Position numbers and translations under genes: made by a program
Notes under the pieces: model-generated
The model's database searches: none
What the model saw: the letters and a program-made list of their open reading frames with translations, nothing else
What the model was told of the DNA's origin: nothing
IMG/VR virus record: IMGVR_UViG_3300030021_000027
Source: a virus
Lineage: Duplodnaviria > Heunggongvirae > Uroviricota > Caudoviricetes
DNA: 13,114 nt
Strand: one strand, 5' to 3'
Shown: one piece after another, positions 3,995-12,695 of the stretch
Layout: every line of letters begins with the position of its first letter
Position numbering within the stretch: the first letter of the stretch is position 1

Positions 3995-4100
3995 ATCCGT
4001 TGAAGCCTGCTTTTTTATACTAAGTTGGCATTATAAAAAAGCATTGCTTATCAATTTGTTGCAACGAACAGGTCACTATCAGTCAAAATAAAATCATTAT
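3995..4100. other. attL: Phage lambda attL (B-O-P'): bacterial B arm, 15-bp core at 4009-4023, P' arm with Int arm-type sites
   Basis: Core GCTTTTTTATACTAA at 4009-4023 is preceded by attB-type sequence (CCGTTGAAGCCTGC) and followed by lambda P' arm sequence (GTTGGCATTATAAAAAAGCATTGCTTATCAATTTGTTGCAACGAACAGGTCACTATCAGTCAAAATAAAATCATT) running into the int 3' end. Confidence 0.9.
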
Positions 4101-5167
4101 TTGATTTCAATTTTGTCCCACTCCCTGCCTCTGTCATCACGATACTGTGATGCCATGGTGTCCGACTTATGCCCGAGAAGATGTTGAGCAAACTTATCGC
4201 TTATCTGCTTCTCATAGAGTCTTGCAGACAAACTGCGCAACTCGTGAAAGGTAGGCGGATCCCCTTCGAAGGAAAGACCTGATGCTTTTCGTGCGCGCAT
4301 AAAATACCTTGATACTGTGCCGGATGAAAGCGGTTCGCGACGAGTAGATGCAATTATGGTTTCTCCGCCAAGAATCTCTTTGCATTTATCAAGTGTTTCC
4401 TTCATTGATATTCCGAGAGCATCAACATGCAATACTGTTGGGATGGCAATTTTTACGCCTGTTTTGCTTTGCTCGACATAAAGATATCCATCTACGATAT
4501 CAGACCACTTCATTTCGCATAAATCACCAACTCGTTGCCCGGTAACAACAGCCAGTTCCATTGCAAGTCTGAGCCAACATGGTAATGATTCTGCTGCTTG
4601 ATAAATTTTCAGGTATTCGTCAGCCGTAAGTCTTGATCTCCTTACCTCTGATTTTGCTGCGCGAGTGGCAGCGACAGGGTTTGTTGTTATATGGCCTTCA
4701 GCTATTGCCTCTCGGAATGCATCGCTCAGTGTTGATCTGATTAACTTGGCTGACGCCGCCTTGCCCTCGTCTATGTATCCATTGAGCATTGCCGCAATTT
4801 CTTTTGTGGTGATGTCTTCAAGTGGAGCATCAGGCAGACCCCTCCTTATTGCTTTAATTTTGCTCATGTAATTTATGAGTGTCTTCTGCTTGATTCCTCT
4901 GCTGGCCAGGATTTTTTCGTAGCGATCAAGCCATGAATGTAACGTAACGGAATTATCACTGTTGATTCTCGCTGTCAGAGGCTTGTGTTTGTGTCCTGAA
5001 AATAACTCAATGTTGGCCTGTATAGCTTCAGTGATTGCGATTCGCCTGTCTCTGCCTAATCCAAACTCTTTACCCGTCCTTGGGTCCCTGTAGCAGTAAT
5101 ATCCATTGTTTCTTATATAAAGGTTAGGGGGTAAATCCCGGCGCTCATGACTTCGCCTTCTTCCCAT
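4097..5167 (-). CDS. int: Lambda-type tyrosine integrase Int, 356 aa
   Basis: Translation MGRRRSHERRDLPPNLYIRNNGYYCYRDPRTGKEFGLGRDRR... matches phage lambda Int over its full length by my recall. It is adjacent to attL and transcribed toward it, as in a lambda prophage. Confidence 0.97.
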   Translation of the reverse strand: MGRRRSHERRDLPPNLYIRNNGYYCYRDPRTGKEFGLGRDRRIAITEAIQANIELFSGHKHKPLTARINSDNSVTLHSWLDRYEKILASRGIKQKTLINYMSKIKAIRRGLPDAPLEDITTKEIAAMLNGYIDEGKAASAKLIRSTLSDAFREAIAEGHITTNPVAATRAAKSEVRRSRLTADEYLKIYQAAESLPCWLRLAMELAVVTGQRVGDLCEMKWSDIVDGYLYVEQSKTGVKIAIPTVLHVDALGISMKETLDKCKEILGGETIIASTRREPLSSGTVSRYFMRARKASGLSFEGDPPTFHELRSLSARLYEKQISDKFAQHLLGHKSDTMASQYRDDRGREWDKIEIK

Positions 5168-5363
5168 TTCTGATCCTCTTCAAAAGGCTACCTGTTACTG
5201 GTCGATTTAAGTCAACCTTTACCGCTGATTCGTGGAACAGATACTCTCTTCCATCCTTAACCGGAGGAGGGAATATCCTGCACTCGCGTACCCATCGACG
5301 AACTGTTTCAAGGCTTCTTGGGCGTCGCTGGCGTGCGTTCCACTCCTGAAGTGTCAAGTACAT
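5145..5363 (-). CDS. xis: Lambda-type excisionase Xis, 72 aa
   Basis: Translation MYLTLQEWNARQRRPRSLETVRRWVRECRIFPPPVKDGREYLFHESAVKVDL... It overlaps the int start by 23 nt, as in lambda. Confidence 0.95.
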   Translation of the reverse strand: MYLTLQEWNARQRRPRSLETVRRWVRECRIFPPPVKDGREYLFHESAVKVDLNRPVTGSLLKRIRNGKKAKS

Positions 5364-5389: not shown

Positions 5390-5412
5390 GAAAAAACCGC
5401 CATCAGGCGGCT
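5390..5412 (-). terminator. Candidate rho-independent terminator (minus strand) at the 3' end of the orf55-like gene
   Basis: Minus-strand GC stem (GCCGCC/GGCGGT, 4-nt loop) followed by a run of six T (plus-strand A-tract 5391-5396). Confidence 0.4.
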
Positions 5413-5570
5413 TGGTGTTCTTTCAGTTCTTCAATTCGAATATTGGTTACGTCTGCATGTGCTATCTGCGCCCATATCATCCAGTGGTTATAACAGTCGT
5501 TGATGTTCTCTGCTTCGATAACCCTGTTGAATGGCTCTCCATTCCATTCACCTGTGACTCGGAAGTGCAT
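5403..5570 (-). CDS. Small lambdoid early-left ORF (55 aa, lambda orf55-like); not in the supplied ORF track
   Basis: My own translation of the minus strand gives MHFRVTGEWNGEPFNRVIEAENINDCYNHWMIWAQIAHADVTNIRIEELKEHQAA. GGAG lies 7 nt upstream of the ATG at 5570. Position immediately upstream of xis matches lambda organisation. Confidence 0.55.
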   Translation of the reverse strand: MHFRVTGEWNGEPFNRVIEAENINDCYNHWMIWAQIAHADVTNIRIEELKEHQAA

Positions 5571-5583
5571 TTATCATCTCCAT

Positions 5584-5607
5584 AAAACAAAACTCGCCGT
5601 AGCGAGT
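5584..5607 (-). terminator. Candidate rho-independent terminator (minus strand) downstream of the 142-aa gene
   Basis: Inverted repeat ACTCGC-CGTA-GCGAGT followed on the minus strand by TTTGTTTT. Confidence 0.45.
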
Positions 5608-5653
5608 TCAGATATAATTTCCACCAAAGGCAGTAGTTGCTTGATGCTAAGAA

Positions 5654-6082
5654 TTATTCAATATCTATTCCTGTAATATCTTTTATCTTTTTCCTTGCAA
5701 AGCCTTTTGCTAGTGATTTTGAAACACTCATAAGTGTACTAATTCCCTCATCCTTAAAGTTTGTTTTTATAGCTTGCCAGACATCCTTTTGACGTAAGTC
5801 AGCAATAAAATCATGCCCTCTTGCTGTCAACCTCAGTGGTACTTCGATCCAACTATATCCAACACCTTCCCCTAACGCTTTGGACAATATATGACCGAAC
5901 CCAGGTTTTCCATCAACCCTGACTATTAATTCGTAGTCACATAATAATCGCATATGGAAAATAAAATCTTGGTCATATCTATTAAAGCCATTATCCTCTA
6001 GTTCACTAAGCATCGTGTCAGGGCCACGAGTTTTTTCGAATGCGATAAGTAGATCTTTTAGATATTGCTGGTCTAATTTCAT
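5654..6082 (-). CDS. Hypothetical protein, 142 aa (phage accessory gene, function unknown)
   Basis: ORF with strong RBS (GGAGG, 5-nt spacer) before the ATG at 6082. AT-rich relative to flanks. No family recognised by eye. Confidence 0.7.
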   Translation of the reverse strand: MKLDQQYLKDLLIAFEKTRGPDTMLSELEDNGFNRYDQDFIFHMRLLCDYELIVRVDGKPGFGHILSKALGEGVGYSWIEVPLRLTARGHDFIADLRQKDVWQAIKTNFKDEGISTLMSVSKSLAKGFARKKIKDITGIDIE

Positions 6083-6110
6083 TGCCGCCTCCGTGACATG
6101 TCACAGAGAT

Positions 6111-6449
6111 TTATATCATTAATTTTGTTTCGTGCCAGCCTTTGGTCACCCAGCATTGTGAGTCACCATTACACGGGCATGAATTAACAGGAACTCTCTC
6201 GCCGCACTTACCGCACCGTTTTCTGCTGATCGATTTTATACGCCAGCGCACACGTGCATCATCCTGGCGGCTCAGTAACGCGATGTACTCACCAAACTCG
6301 CAAGGCGCACGCCTGAAGCGACGCGTGGCACAGTTACGCTCCAGCATTTCAATTTCCTGAGCATCAAGTACAAGCTCCAGCTTACGCATACCGGATGATG
6401 CTTGCTTGGCTCTCTGATCGGCTTTGTGCTCTGTTGCTGATTTAGCCAT
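6111..6449 (-). CDS. Hypothetical protein, 112 aa, with a C-terminal Cys-rich (zinc-ribbon-like) region
   Basis: ORF with AGGAAA RBS about 7 nt upstream of the ATG at 6449. C-terminus reads RKRCGKCGERVPVNSCPCNGDSQCW. Ends 28 bp upstream of the 142-aa gene, suggesting an operon. Confidence 0.65.
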   Translation of the reverse strand: MAKSATEHKADQRAKQASSGMRKLELVLDAQEIEMLERNCATRRFRRAPCEFGEYIALLSRQDDARVRWRIKSISRKRCGKCGERVPVNSCPCNGDSQCWVTKGWHETKLMI

Positions 6450-6645
6450 TCTGCTTTTCCTGCATCAGGAGAAAGACAATCATGGCGGCGCGGATACTTC
6501 CGGTATCTTTTTACGCGATATTCCCCTTCAATGGCACATACAAGAAGAGAGCCATCAACAGGAGTGATTGAGGAATCGACAACCAGCAACGCTTAATTAT
6601 CTATAGTGTCGTATTTGCTTCATAAAATATGGCGAATAACACAAA

Positions 6646-6677
6646 GCCCGCAGCAGCTCATTGTGCGGGCTTTTCTT
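6646..6677. terminator. Candidate bidirectional rho-independent terminator separating the two-gene cassette from the secreted-protein gene
   Basis: 7-bp GC-rich stem (GCCCGCA/TGCGGGC) followed by TTTTCTT on the plus strand and a weaker T-rich tail on the minus strand. Confidence 0.5.
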
Positions 6678-6742
6678 ATACCTACTTCCTAGAGATAATT
6701 CTATGGAGGCATTAAATCAATACTGTCATTGGTAATATCATA

Positions 6743-8515: not shown

Positions 8516-8707
8516 TCATACCTGGTCTCTCTCATCTGCTTCTGCTTTCGCCACCATCATTTCCAGCTTTTGTGAAAGGGATGCGGCTAACGTATGAAAT
8601 TCTTCGTCTGTTTCTACTGGTATTGGCACAAACCTGACTCCAATTTGAGCGAGGCTATGTGCCATCTCGATACACGTTCTTAACTCAACAGGAGATGCTT
8701 TGTGCAT
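8516..8707 (-). CDS. Lambda orf63-like protein, 63 aa
   Basis: Translation MHKASPVELRTCIEMAHSLAQIGVRFVPIPVETDEEFHTLAASLSQKLEMMVAKAEADERDQV, recognised as the lambda early-left orf63 product. G-rich RBS upstream. Confidence 0.85.
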   Translation of the reverse strand: MHKASPVELRTCIEMAHSLAQIGVRFVPIPVETDEEFHTLAASLSQKLEMMVAKAEADERDQV

Positions 8708-8817: not shown

Positions 8818-9180
8818 GTGAATACCTACAGCATCACATTACCCTGGCCTCCGAGCAATAATCGCTATTACCGCCATAATCGCGGGCGCACGCACGTCAG
8901 CGCAGAGGGGCAGGCATACCGCGATAACGTCGCCCGAATCATTAAAAACGCAATGCTGGATATCGGCCTGACTATGCCTGTGAAAATCCGCATTGAGTGC
9001 CACATGCCGGATCGCCGTCGCCGTGACCTGGATAATCTGCAAAAAGCCGCTTTTGACGCACTCACTAAAGCAGGTTTCTGGCTGGATGATGCTCAGGTCG
9101 TTGATTACCGCGTTGTGAAGATGCCTGTTACCAAAGGTGGGAGGCTGGAACTGACCATCACCGAAATGGGGAATGAATGA
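8818..9180 (+). CDS. rusA: Holliday-junction resolvase RusA (crossover junction endodeoxyribonuclease), 120 aa, GTG start
   Basis: Translation [47 protein letters not shown]... is near-identical to E. coli DLP12 RusA by my recall. GAGGGGG RBS upstream. Confidence 0.95.
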
Positions 9181-9935: not shown

Positions 9936-10460
9936 TTATTGTTTAACCCATAATAATTCATTGACATTGAATCCCAACTTTTGAGCGGTTCGCACATAGT
10001 CTGCTTTTACTTTATCTGGAATAGTTGGGGTCCTTGCCAGAATCCATAGGTATTCTCTGTTCGGACCACTGACAAGAGCATACTTATACTCATCATCCAG
10101 TTTGATTACATTATAGCCACCATAGAAGGGGCCAAAAAACGAAACCTTCAATGCTGCAGTTTTAGTATCTCCAGTAAAGTATGCTTTACCTTCGCTCTCG
10201 CTCCATTTATTTTTCGTTGGATCGTATCCACGGTTAAGTACACGAATCCCTCCGTCGTTCCGTTTTCCATAAGTAGCGCTGACCTGTTCCAGACCACGTT
10301 CGAACCGGTTCTCGAGGCGAGCTATTTCATACCATTTTCCGAGGTAGCGGTTGGCGTCAAAATTTGTAATCGGCTGCACACCTTTAGGTGGTGTCGGGGC
10401 CTTACATGCTATAAGAGTGAAAGAGAGTGCAATGCCAGTCAACACAGGCCATAACTTCAT
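9936..10460 (-). CDS. Bacterial lipocalin Blc-like outer-membrane lipoprotein, 174 aa
   Basis: Lipoprotein signal MKLWPVLTGIALSFTLIAC (lipobox LIAC). Mature region (FDANRYLGKWYEIARLENRFERGLEQVSATY...KAYFTG...ALKVSFFGPFYGGYNVI...EYLWILARTP) is clearly homologous to E. coli Blc but divergent. Confidence 0.85.
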   Translation of the reverse strand: MKLWPVLTGIALSFTLIACKAPTPPKGVQPITNFDANRYLGKWYEIARLENRFERGLEQVSATYGKRNDGGIRVLNRGYDPTKNKWSESEGKAYFTGDTKTAALKVSFFGPFYGGYNVIKLDDEYKYALVSGPNREYLWILARTPTIPDKVKADYVRTAQKLGFNVNELLWVKQ

Positions 10461-10652
10461 AATAAATCCTGTACTTTTGATAGTTGAGAGTAAGTATGAA
10501 AGATAGATGATTACGACCGATCACTTAAAGAACTTTCATACTATATTAGGAATAGTCCATAACAGAAAAATTGTCAGTGATGACGCCAGAAAGGCAATTT
10601 ATTCCGTGCACTACACAGTTTATGTGTTAATGAATTAGTCAAGGGGGAGAAT

Positions 10653-11612
10653 ATGATAAAAAAACCTGTGATTGGAATCAGCGGTTGTTTGGCCGGTTCT
10701 GCTGTTCGTTTTGATGGTGGTCACAAAAGAGCTGACTTTTTAATGGACAAATTAGTGGAATGGGTAACATTCAGACCAGTATGTCCGGAAATGGCTATAG
10801 GGCTGCCAGTTCCGCGTCCTGCTCTACGTCTTGTGCGCTCGACGCAAGGAAATATACGGATGTGTTTCAGCCACGACCAGAATGAGGATGTGACAGAGAG
10901 AATGACAGAGTTTAGTCGTTCTTATATGGACAAATTAAAGGATGTATCGGGGTTTGTGGTTTGTGCTAAATCTCCCAGCTGTGGCATGGAGCGCGTGCGT
11001 GTCTATGATGAAAATGGTAATCGAGGTCGTAAAGATGGAGTGGGACTATTTACGAGCACTTTGATGGAAAAGTTTTCCTGGCTACCGGTTGAAGAGGATG
11101 GGCGATTACATGATCCAGTGCTTCGTGAGAATTTTGTTGAAAGAGTTTTTGCTTTGCATGAGCTCAATCACCTTTACAAGGAGAAATTATCAAGAAGAGA
11201 GTTATTAGCTTTTCATAGTCGTTATAAGCTTCAGTTGTTGGCGCATAGTCAGGCAGGCTATAAAGATATGGGACCATTTGTGGCTGCAATACACGAGTGG
11301 GCGGACCTTGAATCATACTTTGAGGTGTATCGTGATAAGCTGATGGCGATTCTCAGAAAACCTGCATCACGTAAAAATCACACGAATGTGCTGATGCATA
11401 TACAGGGGTATTTTAGTAACTACTTAAGTACACGCCAGCGTAAAGAGTTGAGCGAGGTTATACTTAACTATCGTTCTGGCACATTACCTCTTCTTGCGCC
11501 GTTGACTCTGCTGAAGCATTATCTGGGTGAGTATCCTAATGATTACTTGCTTACACAGAATTACTTCGATCCCTATCCGGACGAACTGGCTCTAAGACTG
11601 ATGGTAAATTAA
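10653..11612 (+). CDS. DUF523 (TudS-like thiouracil desulfidase fold) / DUF1722 (YbgA-like) fusion protein, 319 aa
   Basis: N-terminus MIKKPVIGISGCLAGSAVRFDGGHKR with conserved Cys residues typical of DUF523. The C-terminal half resembles YbgA-type DUF1722. Strong RBS AAGGGGGAG. Family assignment is from memory, not a search. Confidence 0.8.
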   Translation: MIKKPVIGISGCLAGSAVRFDGGHKRADFLMDKLVEWVTFRPVCPEMAIGLPVPRPALRLVRSTQGNIRMCFSHDQNEDVTERMTEFSRSYMDKLKDVSGFVVCAKSPSCGMERVRVYDENGNRGRKDGVGLFTSTLMEKFSWLPVEEDGRLHDPVLRENFVERVFALHELNHLYKEKLSRRELLAFHSRYKLQLLAHSQAGYKDMGPFVAAIHEWADLESYFEVYRDKLMAILRKPASRKNHTNVLMHIQGYFSNYLSTRQRKELSEVILNYRSGTLPLLAPLTLLKHYLGEYPNDYLLTQNYFDPYPDELALRLMVN

Positions 11613-11963
11613 TTGTATGCGATATCATCCAAAAGGATGAGTTCCTGCATGCAGGATATTTACAATCGTAAAAACTACACTATGATACCCAGAGTGTCAG
11701 TTTGTATAAAAACTCTGTTTACGCTGAAGAAACAATTGAGATGCAACTTAAAGTTGGTAAACATGCCAGTCAAAATATATAATATTATGATTCCACGCAG
11801 CTATATATAATATAACGGATTGGTTTAATAATTTGTCTTTGTGAGTTAAATACATAATTTTATACTTGTGATGCAATGAAATTTTCCTTATTGTTGAACT
11901 GGCGAATATTGATTTTCCACCTATACTTACCTGGTGTAACCCCAATGATATCAGGTGGATAAT

Positions 11964-12695
11964 ATGCCATACATATGTTCTATCATTTTGGTGTTGAACT
12001 CGTTTGATGTCCGAATTGGTAAAGAAGATATTTTGTTTAAAAAAGGAAGTGCTGTTCTCATTGATTACAATTTAAAAGATTTTTTTTCATCAAATATAGA
12101 TCATGTAATGATCGTAGATGTTGAAGAGAAAACAGTTAATGATTTCTTTAAAAGCAACACACTCTCACCTTTTTCTGTAAGAAGGTTTTATCCGGCATAC
12201 TTGATGGTGGAATGTGAAGATTTTTCATTGTTAAAGAACTTGATTGCATGCTTGAATTGTGATGGCAGAACTGTGGATTTTGTTAGAAATCAAATATCAC
12301 TTGCATGTCTTGCTATCTTATCTTCAGAGAAAATAGTGCAAAGTTTTTTATTTGGATGTCTTAATAGTTTAGGAAGTAAAGTTAAGGCTATTATTCACAC
12401 GGATATATCTGCAGCATGGAGACTTTGTGATATATCTTCAAGACTGTATCTGAGTGAAAGTCTGTTAAAAAGAAAATTAAAGCACGAAGGCTTATCATTT
12501 AGTAAGTTAATTCTTGAAGAGCGAATGGTGATGGCGGAAAGGTTATTAAGCTACAATTTATATTCTGTTGGAAAAGTTGCTGAGATATGCGGTTATGAAA
12601 ACACGTCATATTTTGTAAGTGTTTTCAGAAGGTATTTTGGTGTTCCTCCCCATCAATATTCATCAAGATTTTTTTTAGAAAAAGACATGATGTAA
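11964..12695 (+). CDS. AraC-family transcriptional regulator, AppY/EnvY-like, about 243 aa (the track ORF starts at GTG 11955)
   Basis: N-terminus MPYICSIILVLNSFDV resembles AppY (MDYVCSVVFICQSFDL). C-terminal AraC-type helix-turn-helix (ICGYENTSYFVSVFRRYFGVPPHQY). AGGTGG RBS upstream. Preceded by a 340-bp extremely AT-rich region. Confidence 0.85.
   Translation: MPYICSIILVLNSFDVRIGKEDILFKKGSAVLIDYNLKDFFSSNIDHVMIVDVEEKTVNDFFKSNTLSPFSVRRFYPAYLMVECEDFSLLKNLIACLNCDGRTVDFVRNQISLACLAILSSEKIVQSFLFGCLNSLGSKVKAIIHTDISAAWRLCDISSRLYLSESLLKRKLKHEGLSFSKLILEERMVMAERLLSYNLYSVGKVAEICGYENTSYFVSVFRRYFGVPPHQYSSRFFLEKDMM

Follow-up and report, generated by a model that had tools for sequence, protein, structure and literature searches.

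A probable epsilon15-like mosaic block beside xis of a lambdoid prophage, with two separable genes for predicted DNA-binding proteins

We analysed a stretch of 13,114 nucleotides (nt), hereafter the window, from a Caudoviricetes virus record (IMGVR_UViG_3300030021_000027). Our subject is a pair of small minus-strand genes that lies between an orf55-like gene next to xis and a gene for a 204-amino-acid (204-aa) protein. An earlier note on this DNA had described the pair, encoding 142 and 112 aa, as a self-contained unit of promoter, genes and terminator, and proposed that it could be an uncharacterised phage-host conflict system. Our results point in another direction: the block is probably a mosaic piece from an epsilon15-like phage that carries two separate genes for small DNA-binding proteins, and not a two-part system.

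Results

The block comprises the following features, in window coordinates.

5580-5609, minus strand: intrinsic terminator after the DUF2513 gene (stem 5609-5590, then U tract)
5654-6082, minus strand: DUF2513 gene, 142 aa; predicted winged-helix domain and C-terminal helices; low-GC, moron-like cargo
6083-6110: spacer of 28 nt between both genes
6088-6092, minus strand: Shine-Dalgarno sequence GGAGG of the DUF2513 gene, strong, 5 nt before the ATG
6093-6104: perfect 12-bp palindrome GTGACATGTCAC (PAL) in the spacer, overlapping the predicted DUF2513 transcription start
6110-6138, minus strand: candidate DUF2513-only promoter, within the last codons of the 112-aa gene
6111-6449, minus strand: 112-aa gene; predicted basic N-terminal helix, ribbon-helix-helix core and Cys4 zinc knuckle
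6272-6589 (L002 5633-5950): spurious 105-aa open reading frame (ORF) overlapping the 112-aa gene
6442-6507, minus strand: 3' stub of a ninX/DUF2591 gene, 66 nt (window 6118-6507 has 90% homology to TL-2011b gp19 and gp20)
6487-6592, minus strand: internal fragment of a humD/UmuD-like (peptidase S24) gene, a pseudogene, with PHROG UmuD-like matches and a weak Pfam S24 match
6646-6677: strong hairpin at the upstream boundary of the block

Both ORFs lie where the earlier note had placed them, 28 nt apart. It had given each a strong ribosome-binding site (RBS); this holds for DUF2513, whereas the site of the 112-aa gene, AGGA at 8 nt from the ATG, is moderate. The two hairpins said to flank the pair as terminators do exist, and the downstream one scores as an intrinsic terminator on the minus strand (centroid -11.9 kcal/mol, z = -1.9); in other genera, including Cronobacter-type loci, DUF2513 is likewise followed by a terminator. 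The upstream hairpin (-22 kcal/mol on the minus strand, z = -2.9) was scored by the terminator pattern scan on the plus strand only. Because it follows the 204-aa stop codon at about 70 nt and precedes the 112-aa start by about 200 nt, it is most likely the terminator of the 204-aa gene, possibly a bidirectional one.

The idea of a unit with its own upstream promoter was not supported. A scan for sigma-70-like promoters on the minus strand between 5300 and 7500 found none, and the interval 6442-6592 reads as a patchwork of ninX and humD remnants and not as promoter DNA. The ninX stub, read as a carry-over from the epsilon15-like donor, overlaps the start of the 112-aa gene by 8 nt, the same as in TL-2011b, and the humD fragment shares 84-91% nucleotide identity with HumD/S24 genes of P1-like plasmids; RefSeq labels it a partial 'DNA repair protein'. 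The 105-aa ORF is a chimera, about 35 codons of the humD fragment that continue out of frame into the 112-aa gene. In phage Chlobot, Pharokka named this ORF 'UmuD-like protein', and the true 112-aa gene is shortened there to a 46-aa 'transcriptional regulator', an annotation artefact.

The 112-aa protein matches PHROG 536, labelled 'transcriptional regulator', at 7e-48. A Pfam scan at E values up to 1 returned no family for it, neither a ribbon-helix-helix (RHH) model nor Ogr_Delta. The Cys-rich, zinc-ribbon-like C-terminus pointed out in the earlier note is borne out by 63 homologues, down to about 40% identity, in which C79-x2-C82-x8-C91-x7-C99 is invariant or at least 90% conserved; these cysteines are predicted metal ligands. 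A GWH motif is conserved across the same homologues, and the copy in the window departs from the near-invariant positions P45, Y50 and I60 of the alignment. The structural model, with a predicted local distance difference test score (pLDDT) of 75, leads from an N-terminal helix through an extended stretch (residues 20-29) and two helices (30-43, 52-75) to the Cys knuckle, and its best structural matches are the RHH antitoxins ParD, TacA and MazE. A sub-threshold NCBIfam match to YbfE, 'LexA regulated protein' (residues 9-48), was used only as a hint of the RHH fold. We thus regard the protein as a predicted RHH and zinc-knuckle DNA-binding protein, with moderate confidence in the RHH part; the conserved Cys4 and the RHH-like model are in agreement with the small nucleic-acid-binding protein that had been suggested. 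In an exhaustive profile search (219 clusters) the family was mostly stand-alone proteins of 105-135 aa, and the few longer ones carried no informative Pfam domains.

The 142-aa protein belongs to Pfam DUF2513 (PF10711; 42.5 bits against a gathering cut-off of 29.6, profile positions 1-100 of 100) and also matches PHROG 585. Its length and motifs are kept across 55 homologues, with 14 invariant columns and strong conservation across Enterobacterales. An AlphaFold2 model built on the 55-sequence alignment (mean pLDDT 93.5) has a winged helix of MarR/PadR/TubR type followed by a helical tail, and it can be superposed on winged-helix regulators of solved structure. The protein shows neither an enzymatic nor a membrane or toxin-like domain, and the proposed role as partner effector gives way to that of a predicted winged-helix DNA binder. 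Pfam gave no MarR or PadR match and, besides DUF2513, just a sub-threshold one to wHTH-PRTase_assc; by its model the protein is a member of the winged-helix fold class and not of the MarR or PadR sequence families. Among the viral structures of BFVD only uncharacterised or generic helix-turn-helix proteins were retrieved, none at E <= 0.001. We infer that DUF2513 acts as a dimeric transcription factor on a phage or host target.

Comparison of the profiles of both families with PDB sequences gave no meaningful match. Profile and structure searches, which the earlier note had proposed as a check, thus gave a winged helix for DUF2513 and an RHH-like model with a Cys4 motif for PHROG 536, but no characterised family with a known role, and its statement that neither protein is of recognised function stands, since both are functionally uncharacterised.

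The 112-aa gene and the ninX stub share about 90% nucleotide identity with gp19'-gp20 of TL-2011b and with p55 of phiV10, which are epsilon15-like temperate podoviruses. The orthologues phiV10 p55, epsilon15 gp49 and TL-2011b gp20 are 112 aa long, with 86-87% amino-acid identity, the same Cys pattern and the palindrome at the stop codon. At about 55 epsilon15-like loci of E. coli only 120-310 nt, free of other genes, separate the gene from terS downstream, while Cronobacter-type and related prophages show the order 112-aa gene, 25-28 nt, DUF2513, terminator, terS; the two proteins encoded there are 63% and 65% identical to those of the window. A UmuD-like gene fills the slot between the 112-aa homologue and terS in Klebsiella phage ST11-OXA245phi3.2 (3435-3509). 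Upstream of it are TTGACT, a 17-nt spacer and a perfect LexA box, TACTGTTTAAATATACAGTA, and the gene reads as an SOS-controlled moron, in the same place as DUF2513 in other phages. Given the synteny upstream of terS and the varied content of the slot, we class the 112-aa gene with the syntenic core of these phages and the position behind it as a cargo site, for which DUF2513, judged from sequence, is one alternative and optional occupant. Consequently, the notion that both genes are morons fits DUF2513, but not the 112-aa gene, a core gene next to terS in its native phages. A megablast impression that the pair was a recent mosaic joint confined to E. coli was overturned by the Cronobacter-type and Yersinia-type loci.

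Also upstream of terS in epsilon15-like phages are direct repeats GGTA-N3-ATTACCAC and an inverted repeat ATTACCA...TGGTAAT (TL-2011b 11583-11620; L010 5455-5490); they might be recognised by terminase or during packaging, or act as a translational operator.

The two genes can be separated. Viral contigs hold at least 590 members of the 112-aa family and 148 of DUF2513, so that the 112-aa gene is at least four times commoner, and usually comes without DUF2513. At 42 divergent DUF2513 loci the partner lies upstream in 16 and is absent from 26. The co-occurrence that had been suggested as a check is therefore found, with the 25-28-nt spacing recurring across genera, but it is not obligate. Several loci without the partner, located in lambdoid nin regions, still have a non-coding stub that corresponds to the final ~10 codons of the 112-aa gene, and we conclude that DUF2513 was exported without its neighbour. 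DUF2513 has been seen in at least three phage contexts: upstream of terS, in the nin region and in the xis-proximal slot. The pairing is real, with genes that do not depend on each other.

In the lambdoid lineage to which the window belongs, the fates of the two genes differ: among 20 distinct sequence variants, DUF2513 is intact in 19, whereas the 112-aa ORF is broken in 10, eight of which share a nonsense mutation at the invariant Cys40. The ratio of non-synonymous to synonymous substitution rates (dN/dS) of the 112-aa gene is ~1 within this lineage (7 non-synonymous and 2 synonymous changes) and ~0.27 relative to TL-2011b, estimates that are built on 9-11 substitutions. It appears that selection on the gene is relaxed in lambdoid genomes, which carry it as a passenger.

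Two rearrangements were also seen at this place. In lambdoid variants on viral contigs L114-L117 a deletion joins window position 6136 to 5441 and has taken out orf55 and DUF2513 along with the final codons of the 112-aa gene. In E. coli E1624 (4444-5206) an IS1 element lies directly upstream of an intact DUF2513, and the region from the 112-aa gene through a blc fragment has been replaced.

PAL occurs once in the window against 0.05 copies expected. Its core lies -2 to +7 nt from the stop codon of the 112-aa gene in 127 of 139 loci, many of them near-identical, and at least eight divergent lineages retain PAL at this stop irrespective of DUF2513, as do myovirus ZF40 and the Klebsiella phage. 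Copies in phiV10 are at 39101, 2262 and 19493; the one at the p55 stop has one mismatch, and the others lie directly after the terL terminator and directly before the terminator ending the structural operon. Those of TL-2011b (11500, 32282) are at the gp20 stop and between ant and its terminator. Each copy in epsilon15-like genomes abuts an intrinsic terminator that ends a rightward operon, and reverse-oriented cargo inserts at the same spots. ZF40 has three exact copies (5125, 7622, 14944) against 0.09 expected, two of them inside early genes, flanking the repressor on either side. The lambdoid phage Chlobot has a single copy, in the spacer.

Because of the linkage of gene and site, the multiplicity of the site and its match in size to an RHH dimer, PAL is probably the binding site of the 112-aa protein. 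The single PAL of lambdoid genomes would then reflect the loss of the rest of the target network, which fits the decay of the 112-aa gene there.

Other identities of PAL were considered and rejected. It is not a LexA box (CTGT-N8-ACAG), as the outer CTGT and ACAG vary between lineages while the inner 12 bp are conserved, and the genuine LexA box of the Klebsiella phage differs. Half-sites spaced by N4 instead of N6 do not suit a CRP-like site. A -35 element of a late promoter would be possible upstream of terS but fails for the copies after terL or p21. As a general RNA hairpin PAL fails too, the stem being just 4-5 bp outside the window. In the window, the flanks of PAL extend it to a 9-bp RNA hairpin (6083-6115, minus-strand RNA; -10.8 kcal/mol, z = -2.9) whose 3' arm is the GGAGG of DUF2513, an extension absent from Cronobacter-type spacers. 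This hairpin would damp translation of DUF2513 from read-through transcripts.

Read against the consensus, the end of the 112-aa gene holds a candidate promoter for DUF2513: a -35-like CTGGCA (6138-6133, in the GWH codons), a 17-nt spacer and an extended -10, TG-a-TATAAA (6118-6110). The promoter scan missed this -10 since it demands T at position 6 of the hexamer. In every arrangement that bears DUF2513, the last codon and stop of the 112-aa gene read TATAA(A) or TATAG(T), 3-7 nt before PAL, often preceded by TG, which makes an extended -10, whereas arrangements without DUF2513 lack the element. Divergent pairs preserve both the TATAA element and PAL, and so do DUF2513-only loci whose stub has lost its coding sense. 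DUF2513 probably has, on this reading, an extended -10 promoter of its own. Transcription would start inside PAL, which would place the palindrome like an operator, and DUF2513 would then be a full unit of promoter, operator, RBS, gene and terminator.

As for its surroundings, the window begins with E. coli chromosome (ybhJ, ybhC) and continues into a lambdoid prophage at the lambda attachment site, where the following genes are relevant.

4097-5167, minus strand: int
5145-5363, minus strand: xis
5403-5570, minus strand: orf55-like gene, 55 aa
6743-7357, minus strand: 204-aa gene; beyond it, an Ead/Ea22 fragment and a TraR/DksA-type gene
9936-10460, minus strand: Blc-type lipocalin
10653-11612: YbgA/DUF1722 protein
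11955-12695: AraC-type regulator

Among 5,426 complete E. coli genomes, 140-141 contain identical DNA, as does the lambdoid phage isolate Chlobot; in those genomes the block lies between xis/orf55 and the exo-bet-gam region. In lambda, this slot is occupied by ea8.5 and ea22. Both the gene context and Chlobot bear out that this lambdoid prophage carries the block as accessory, mosaic cargo close to xis, in line with the accessory hotspot of the earlier note.

The prophage in the window is defective. Its DUF1382 gene (8516-8707) joins straight to rusA (8818-9180), and exo, bet, gam, kil, cIII, the immunity region and the replication genes, present in strain AMSHJX01, are lost. As neither pL nor N is left, the minus-strand genes must depend on local promoters. 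Cargo-like genes that do not look like phage genes (the last three of the list, 9936-12695) lie between the Q-like gene and the holin gene essD, where the late operon begins. With a GC content of about 0.37-0.41 the 204-aa gene is GC-poor, and its product has a signal-peptide or lipoprotein-like N-terminus, a weak SH3_3 match and a match to PHROG 8310, for which no function is assigned there. This gene resembles a moron of its own and may be more promising than the studied pair as a surface-acting exclusion factor.

Discussion

The explanation that we consider probable is that the block once formed the end of an early operon in an epsilon15-like (Uetakevirus-type) phage and was transferred from there into the accessory slot beside the xis of a lambdoid prophage. 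The 112-aa protein would be a sequence-specific regulator that binds PAL as a dimer. DUF2513 would be the cargo actually retained, transcribed from its own promoter in the last codons of the 112-aa gene, with PAL at the transcription start as operator. The block overall appears to be ordinary mosaic cargo of uncharacterised regulators in which only DUF2513 is maintained.

Several points weigh against this explanation. The 112-aa ORF of the window itself is intact and may still function, and the substitution counts behind the dN/dS estimates are small. PAL is also found upstream of DUF2513 in loci without the 112-aa gene, where DUF2513 or a host factor could bind it. Conservation of the candidate promoter could stem from common descent of one insertion event. 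A DNA-binding fold is compatible with a role in phage exclusion, and literature searches on both families and on the epsilon15 and phiV10 orthologues found no paper; the vB_EcoP_ZX5 paper deals with other genes.

The first proposal for this pair was a self-contained phage-host conflict system of two genes: the small zinc-ribbon protein would sense or bind nucleic acid, and the 142-aa protein would act as effector. It draws on the accessory slot adjoining xis, on the recurrence of the pair and its 25-28-nt spacing across genera and on the uncharacterised state of both families. We now find it very unlikely. PADLOC-DB 2.0, searched at E values up to 1, returned no family for either protein or for the two neighbouring genes, the supposed effector is predicted to bind DNA through a winged helix and has no catalytic or membrane domain, the scan found no upstream promoter, and each gene is commonly found without the other. 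Moreover, DUF2513 persists although half of the lambdoid variants carry the 112-aa gene as a pseudogene, and this survival after partner loss weakens any sensor-effector scheme. The same observation rules out, for practical purposes, a type II toxin-antitoxin system, since a real toxin would not tolerate an antitoxin that is absent, reduced to a stub or nonsense-mutated. A system with the RHH protein as antitoxin and DUF2513 as toxin would account for the best matches of the 112-aa model (ParD, TacA, MazE), the antitoxin-first gene order and the short spacer, but the predicted transcription-factor fold of DUF2513, the mostly solitary occurrence of the 112-aa gene and a zinc-knuckle tail unlike known toxin-binding tails contribute to making it extremely improbable.

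A somewhat unlikely reading, though one with a real chance of being right, takes DUF2513 alone as a superinfection-exclusion or lysogenic-conversion factor that would be made from the prophage and bind the DNA of incoming phages or host promoters, the 112-aa gene being irrelevant baggage. It is consistent with the moron-like anatomy of DUF2513 (low GC, its own RBS, terminator and candidate promoter), with its independent moves into at least three phage contexts and with its integrity beside a decaying neighbour. Against this, no similarity to known exclusion or defence proteins was found for DUF2513 in PADLOC or BFVD, and its promoter in the prophage is a candidate only. This possibility is compatible with an epsilon15-like mosaic block of two separate genes and refines it rather than replacing it. 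That the whole block is inert recombination debris with no gene under selection seems quite improbable to us. The ninX and humD fragments on its flank, the often broken 112-aa ORF, the variants that have lost DUF2513 and orf55 and the within-lineage dN/dS values of 0.68-0.97 would all suit debris, but DUF2513 is strongly conserved across Enterobacterales and intact in nearly all lambdoid variants, and the block is carried by Chlobot, a free-living phage isolate.

A more far-reaching proposal, speculative and unlikely as it stands, is that the RHH-zinc-knuckle protein and PAL form an undescribed regulatory circuit of epsilon15-like temperate phages, and that DUF2513 is a PAL-gated moron exported with the circuit into lambdoid phages. 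The protein would bind PAL sites beside the intrinsic terminators that end the early, terminase and structural operons, which are also the cargo slots, and would steer read-through or provide insulation there.

If the block is a mosaic piece of two separate genes, as we favour, the answer to the question of a hidden defence system here is probably no, and interest shifts from the pair to DUF2513 alone. The locus is then a worked example of mosaicism between phage families: the end of a podovirus early operon lies beside a lambda-type xis, stubs of ninX and humD mark the joints, and one passenger gene decays while a cargo gene is retained. The models also provide new, predicted fold-level assignments for two widespread and unstudied families, PHROG 536 and DUF2513. 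PAL offers a handle on transcription at operon boundaries in epsilon15-like phages, as no such regulator is annotated in phiV10 or TL-2011b, and the PAL network of the RHH-zinc protein in its native phages is the most useful lead.

Comparison with known systems

Membership of DUF2513 and PHROG 585 says nothing on role, as the family has no assigned function. In relation to MarR, PadR and TubR regulators, 68-92 of the 142 residues of the DUF2513 model align, at 9-20% sequence identity, and a ligand pocket is not evident. Compared with RHH proteins of the CopG/Arc/MetJ type, including ParD and TacA, the 112-aa protein is predicted to add an N-terminal basic helix and a C-terminal Cys4 knuckle, and unlike RHH antitoxins it has no toxin partner. 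The obligate co-occurrence that characterises type II toxin-antitoxin pairs is not seen here.

In epsilon15-like phages the 112-aa gene lies at the early/late boundary, similarly to lambda Q (PR'-tR') and P2 Ogr, and its product is small and predicted to bind zinc. TL-2011b and phiV10 share the layout 112-aa gene, PAL with a promoter-like GTGACA-18-CATGAT (9 of 12 consensus positions), terminator and terS, which is absent from the window; no Q gene is annotated in either phage. On the other hand, no similarity in sequence or fold between the 112-aa protein and Q or Ogr was found, PAL copies in general are not promoter-proximal, and ZF40 and lambdoid hosts of the gene such as Chlobot encode a separate Q-like protein. 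The likeness is best regarded as a positional analogy only.

DUF2513 shares with morons a GC content that departs from that of neighbouring sequence (0.34-0.39 compared with 0.52-0.55), its own RBS, a terminator behind it, a candidate promoter and a slot that holds alternative cargo elsewhere; its own terminator together with its deviant base composition is what is expected of a moron. It differs in that its candidate promoter would sit inside the preceding gene. In the epsilon15-like orthologues, finally, the 112-aa gene is the last early gene before terS and belongs with a multi-site palindrome network (phiV10, TL-2011b), whereas the copy in the window, beside the xis of a lambdoid prophage, is accompanied by one palindrome only and has substitutions at near-invariant positions.

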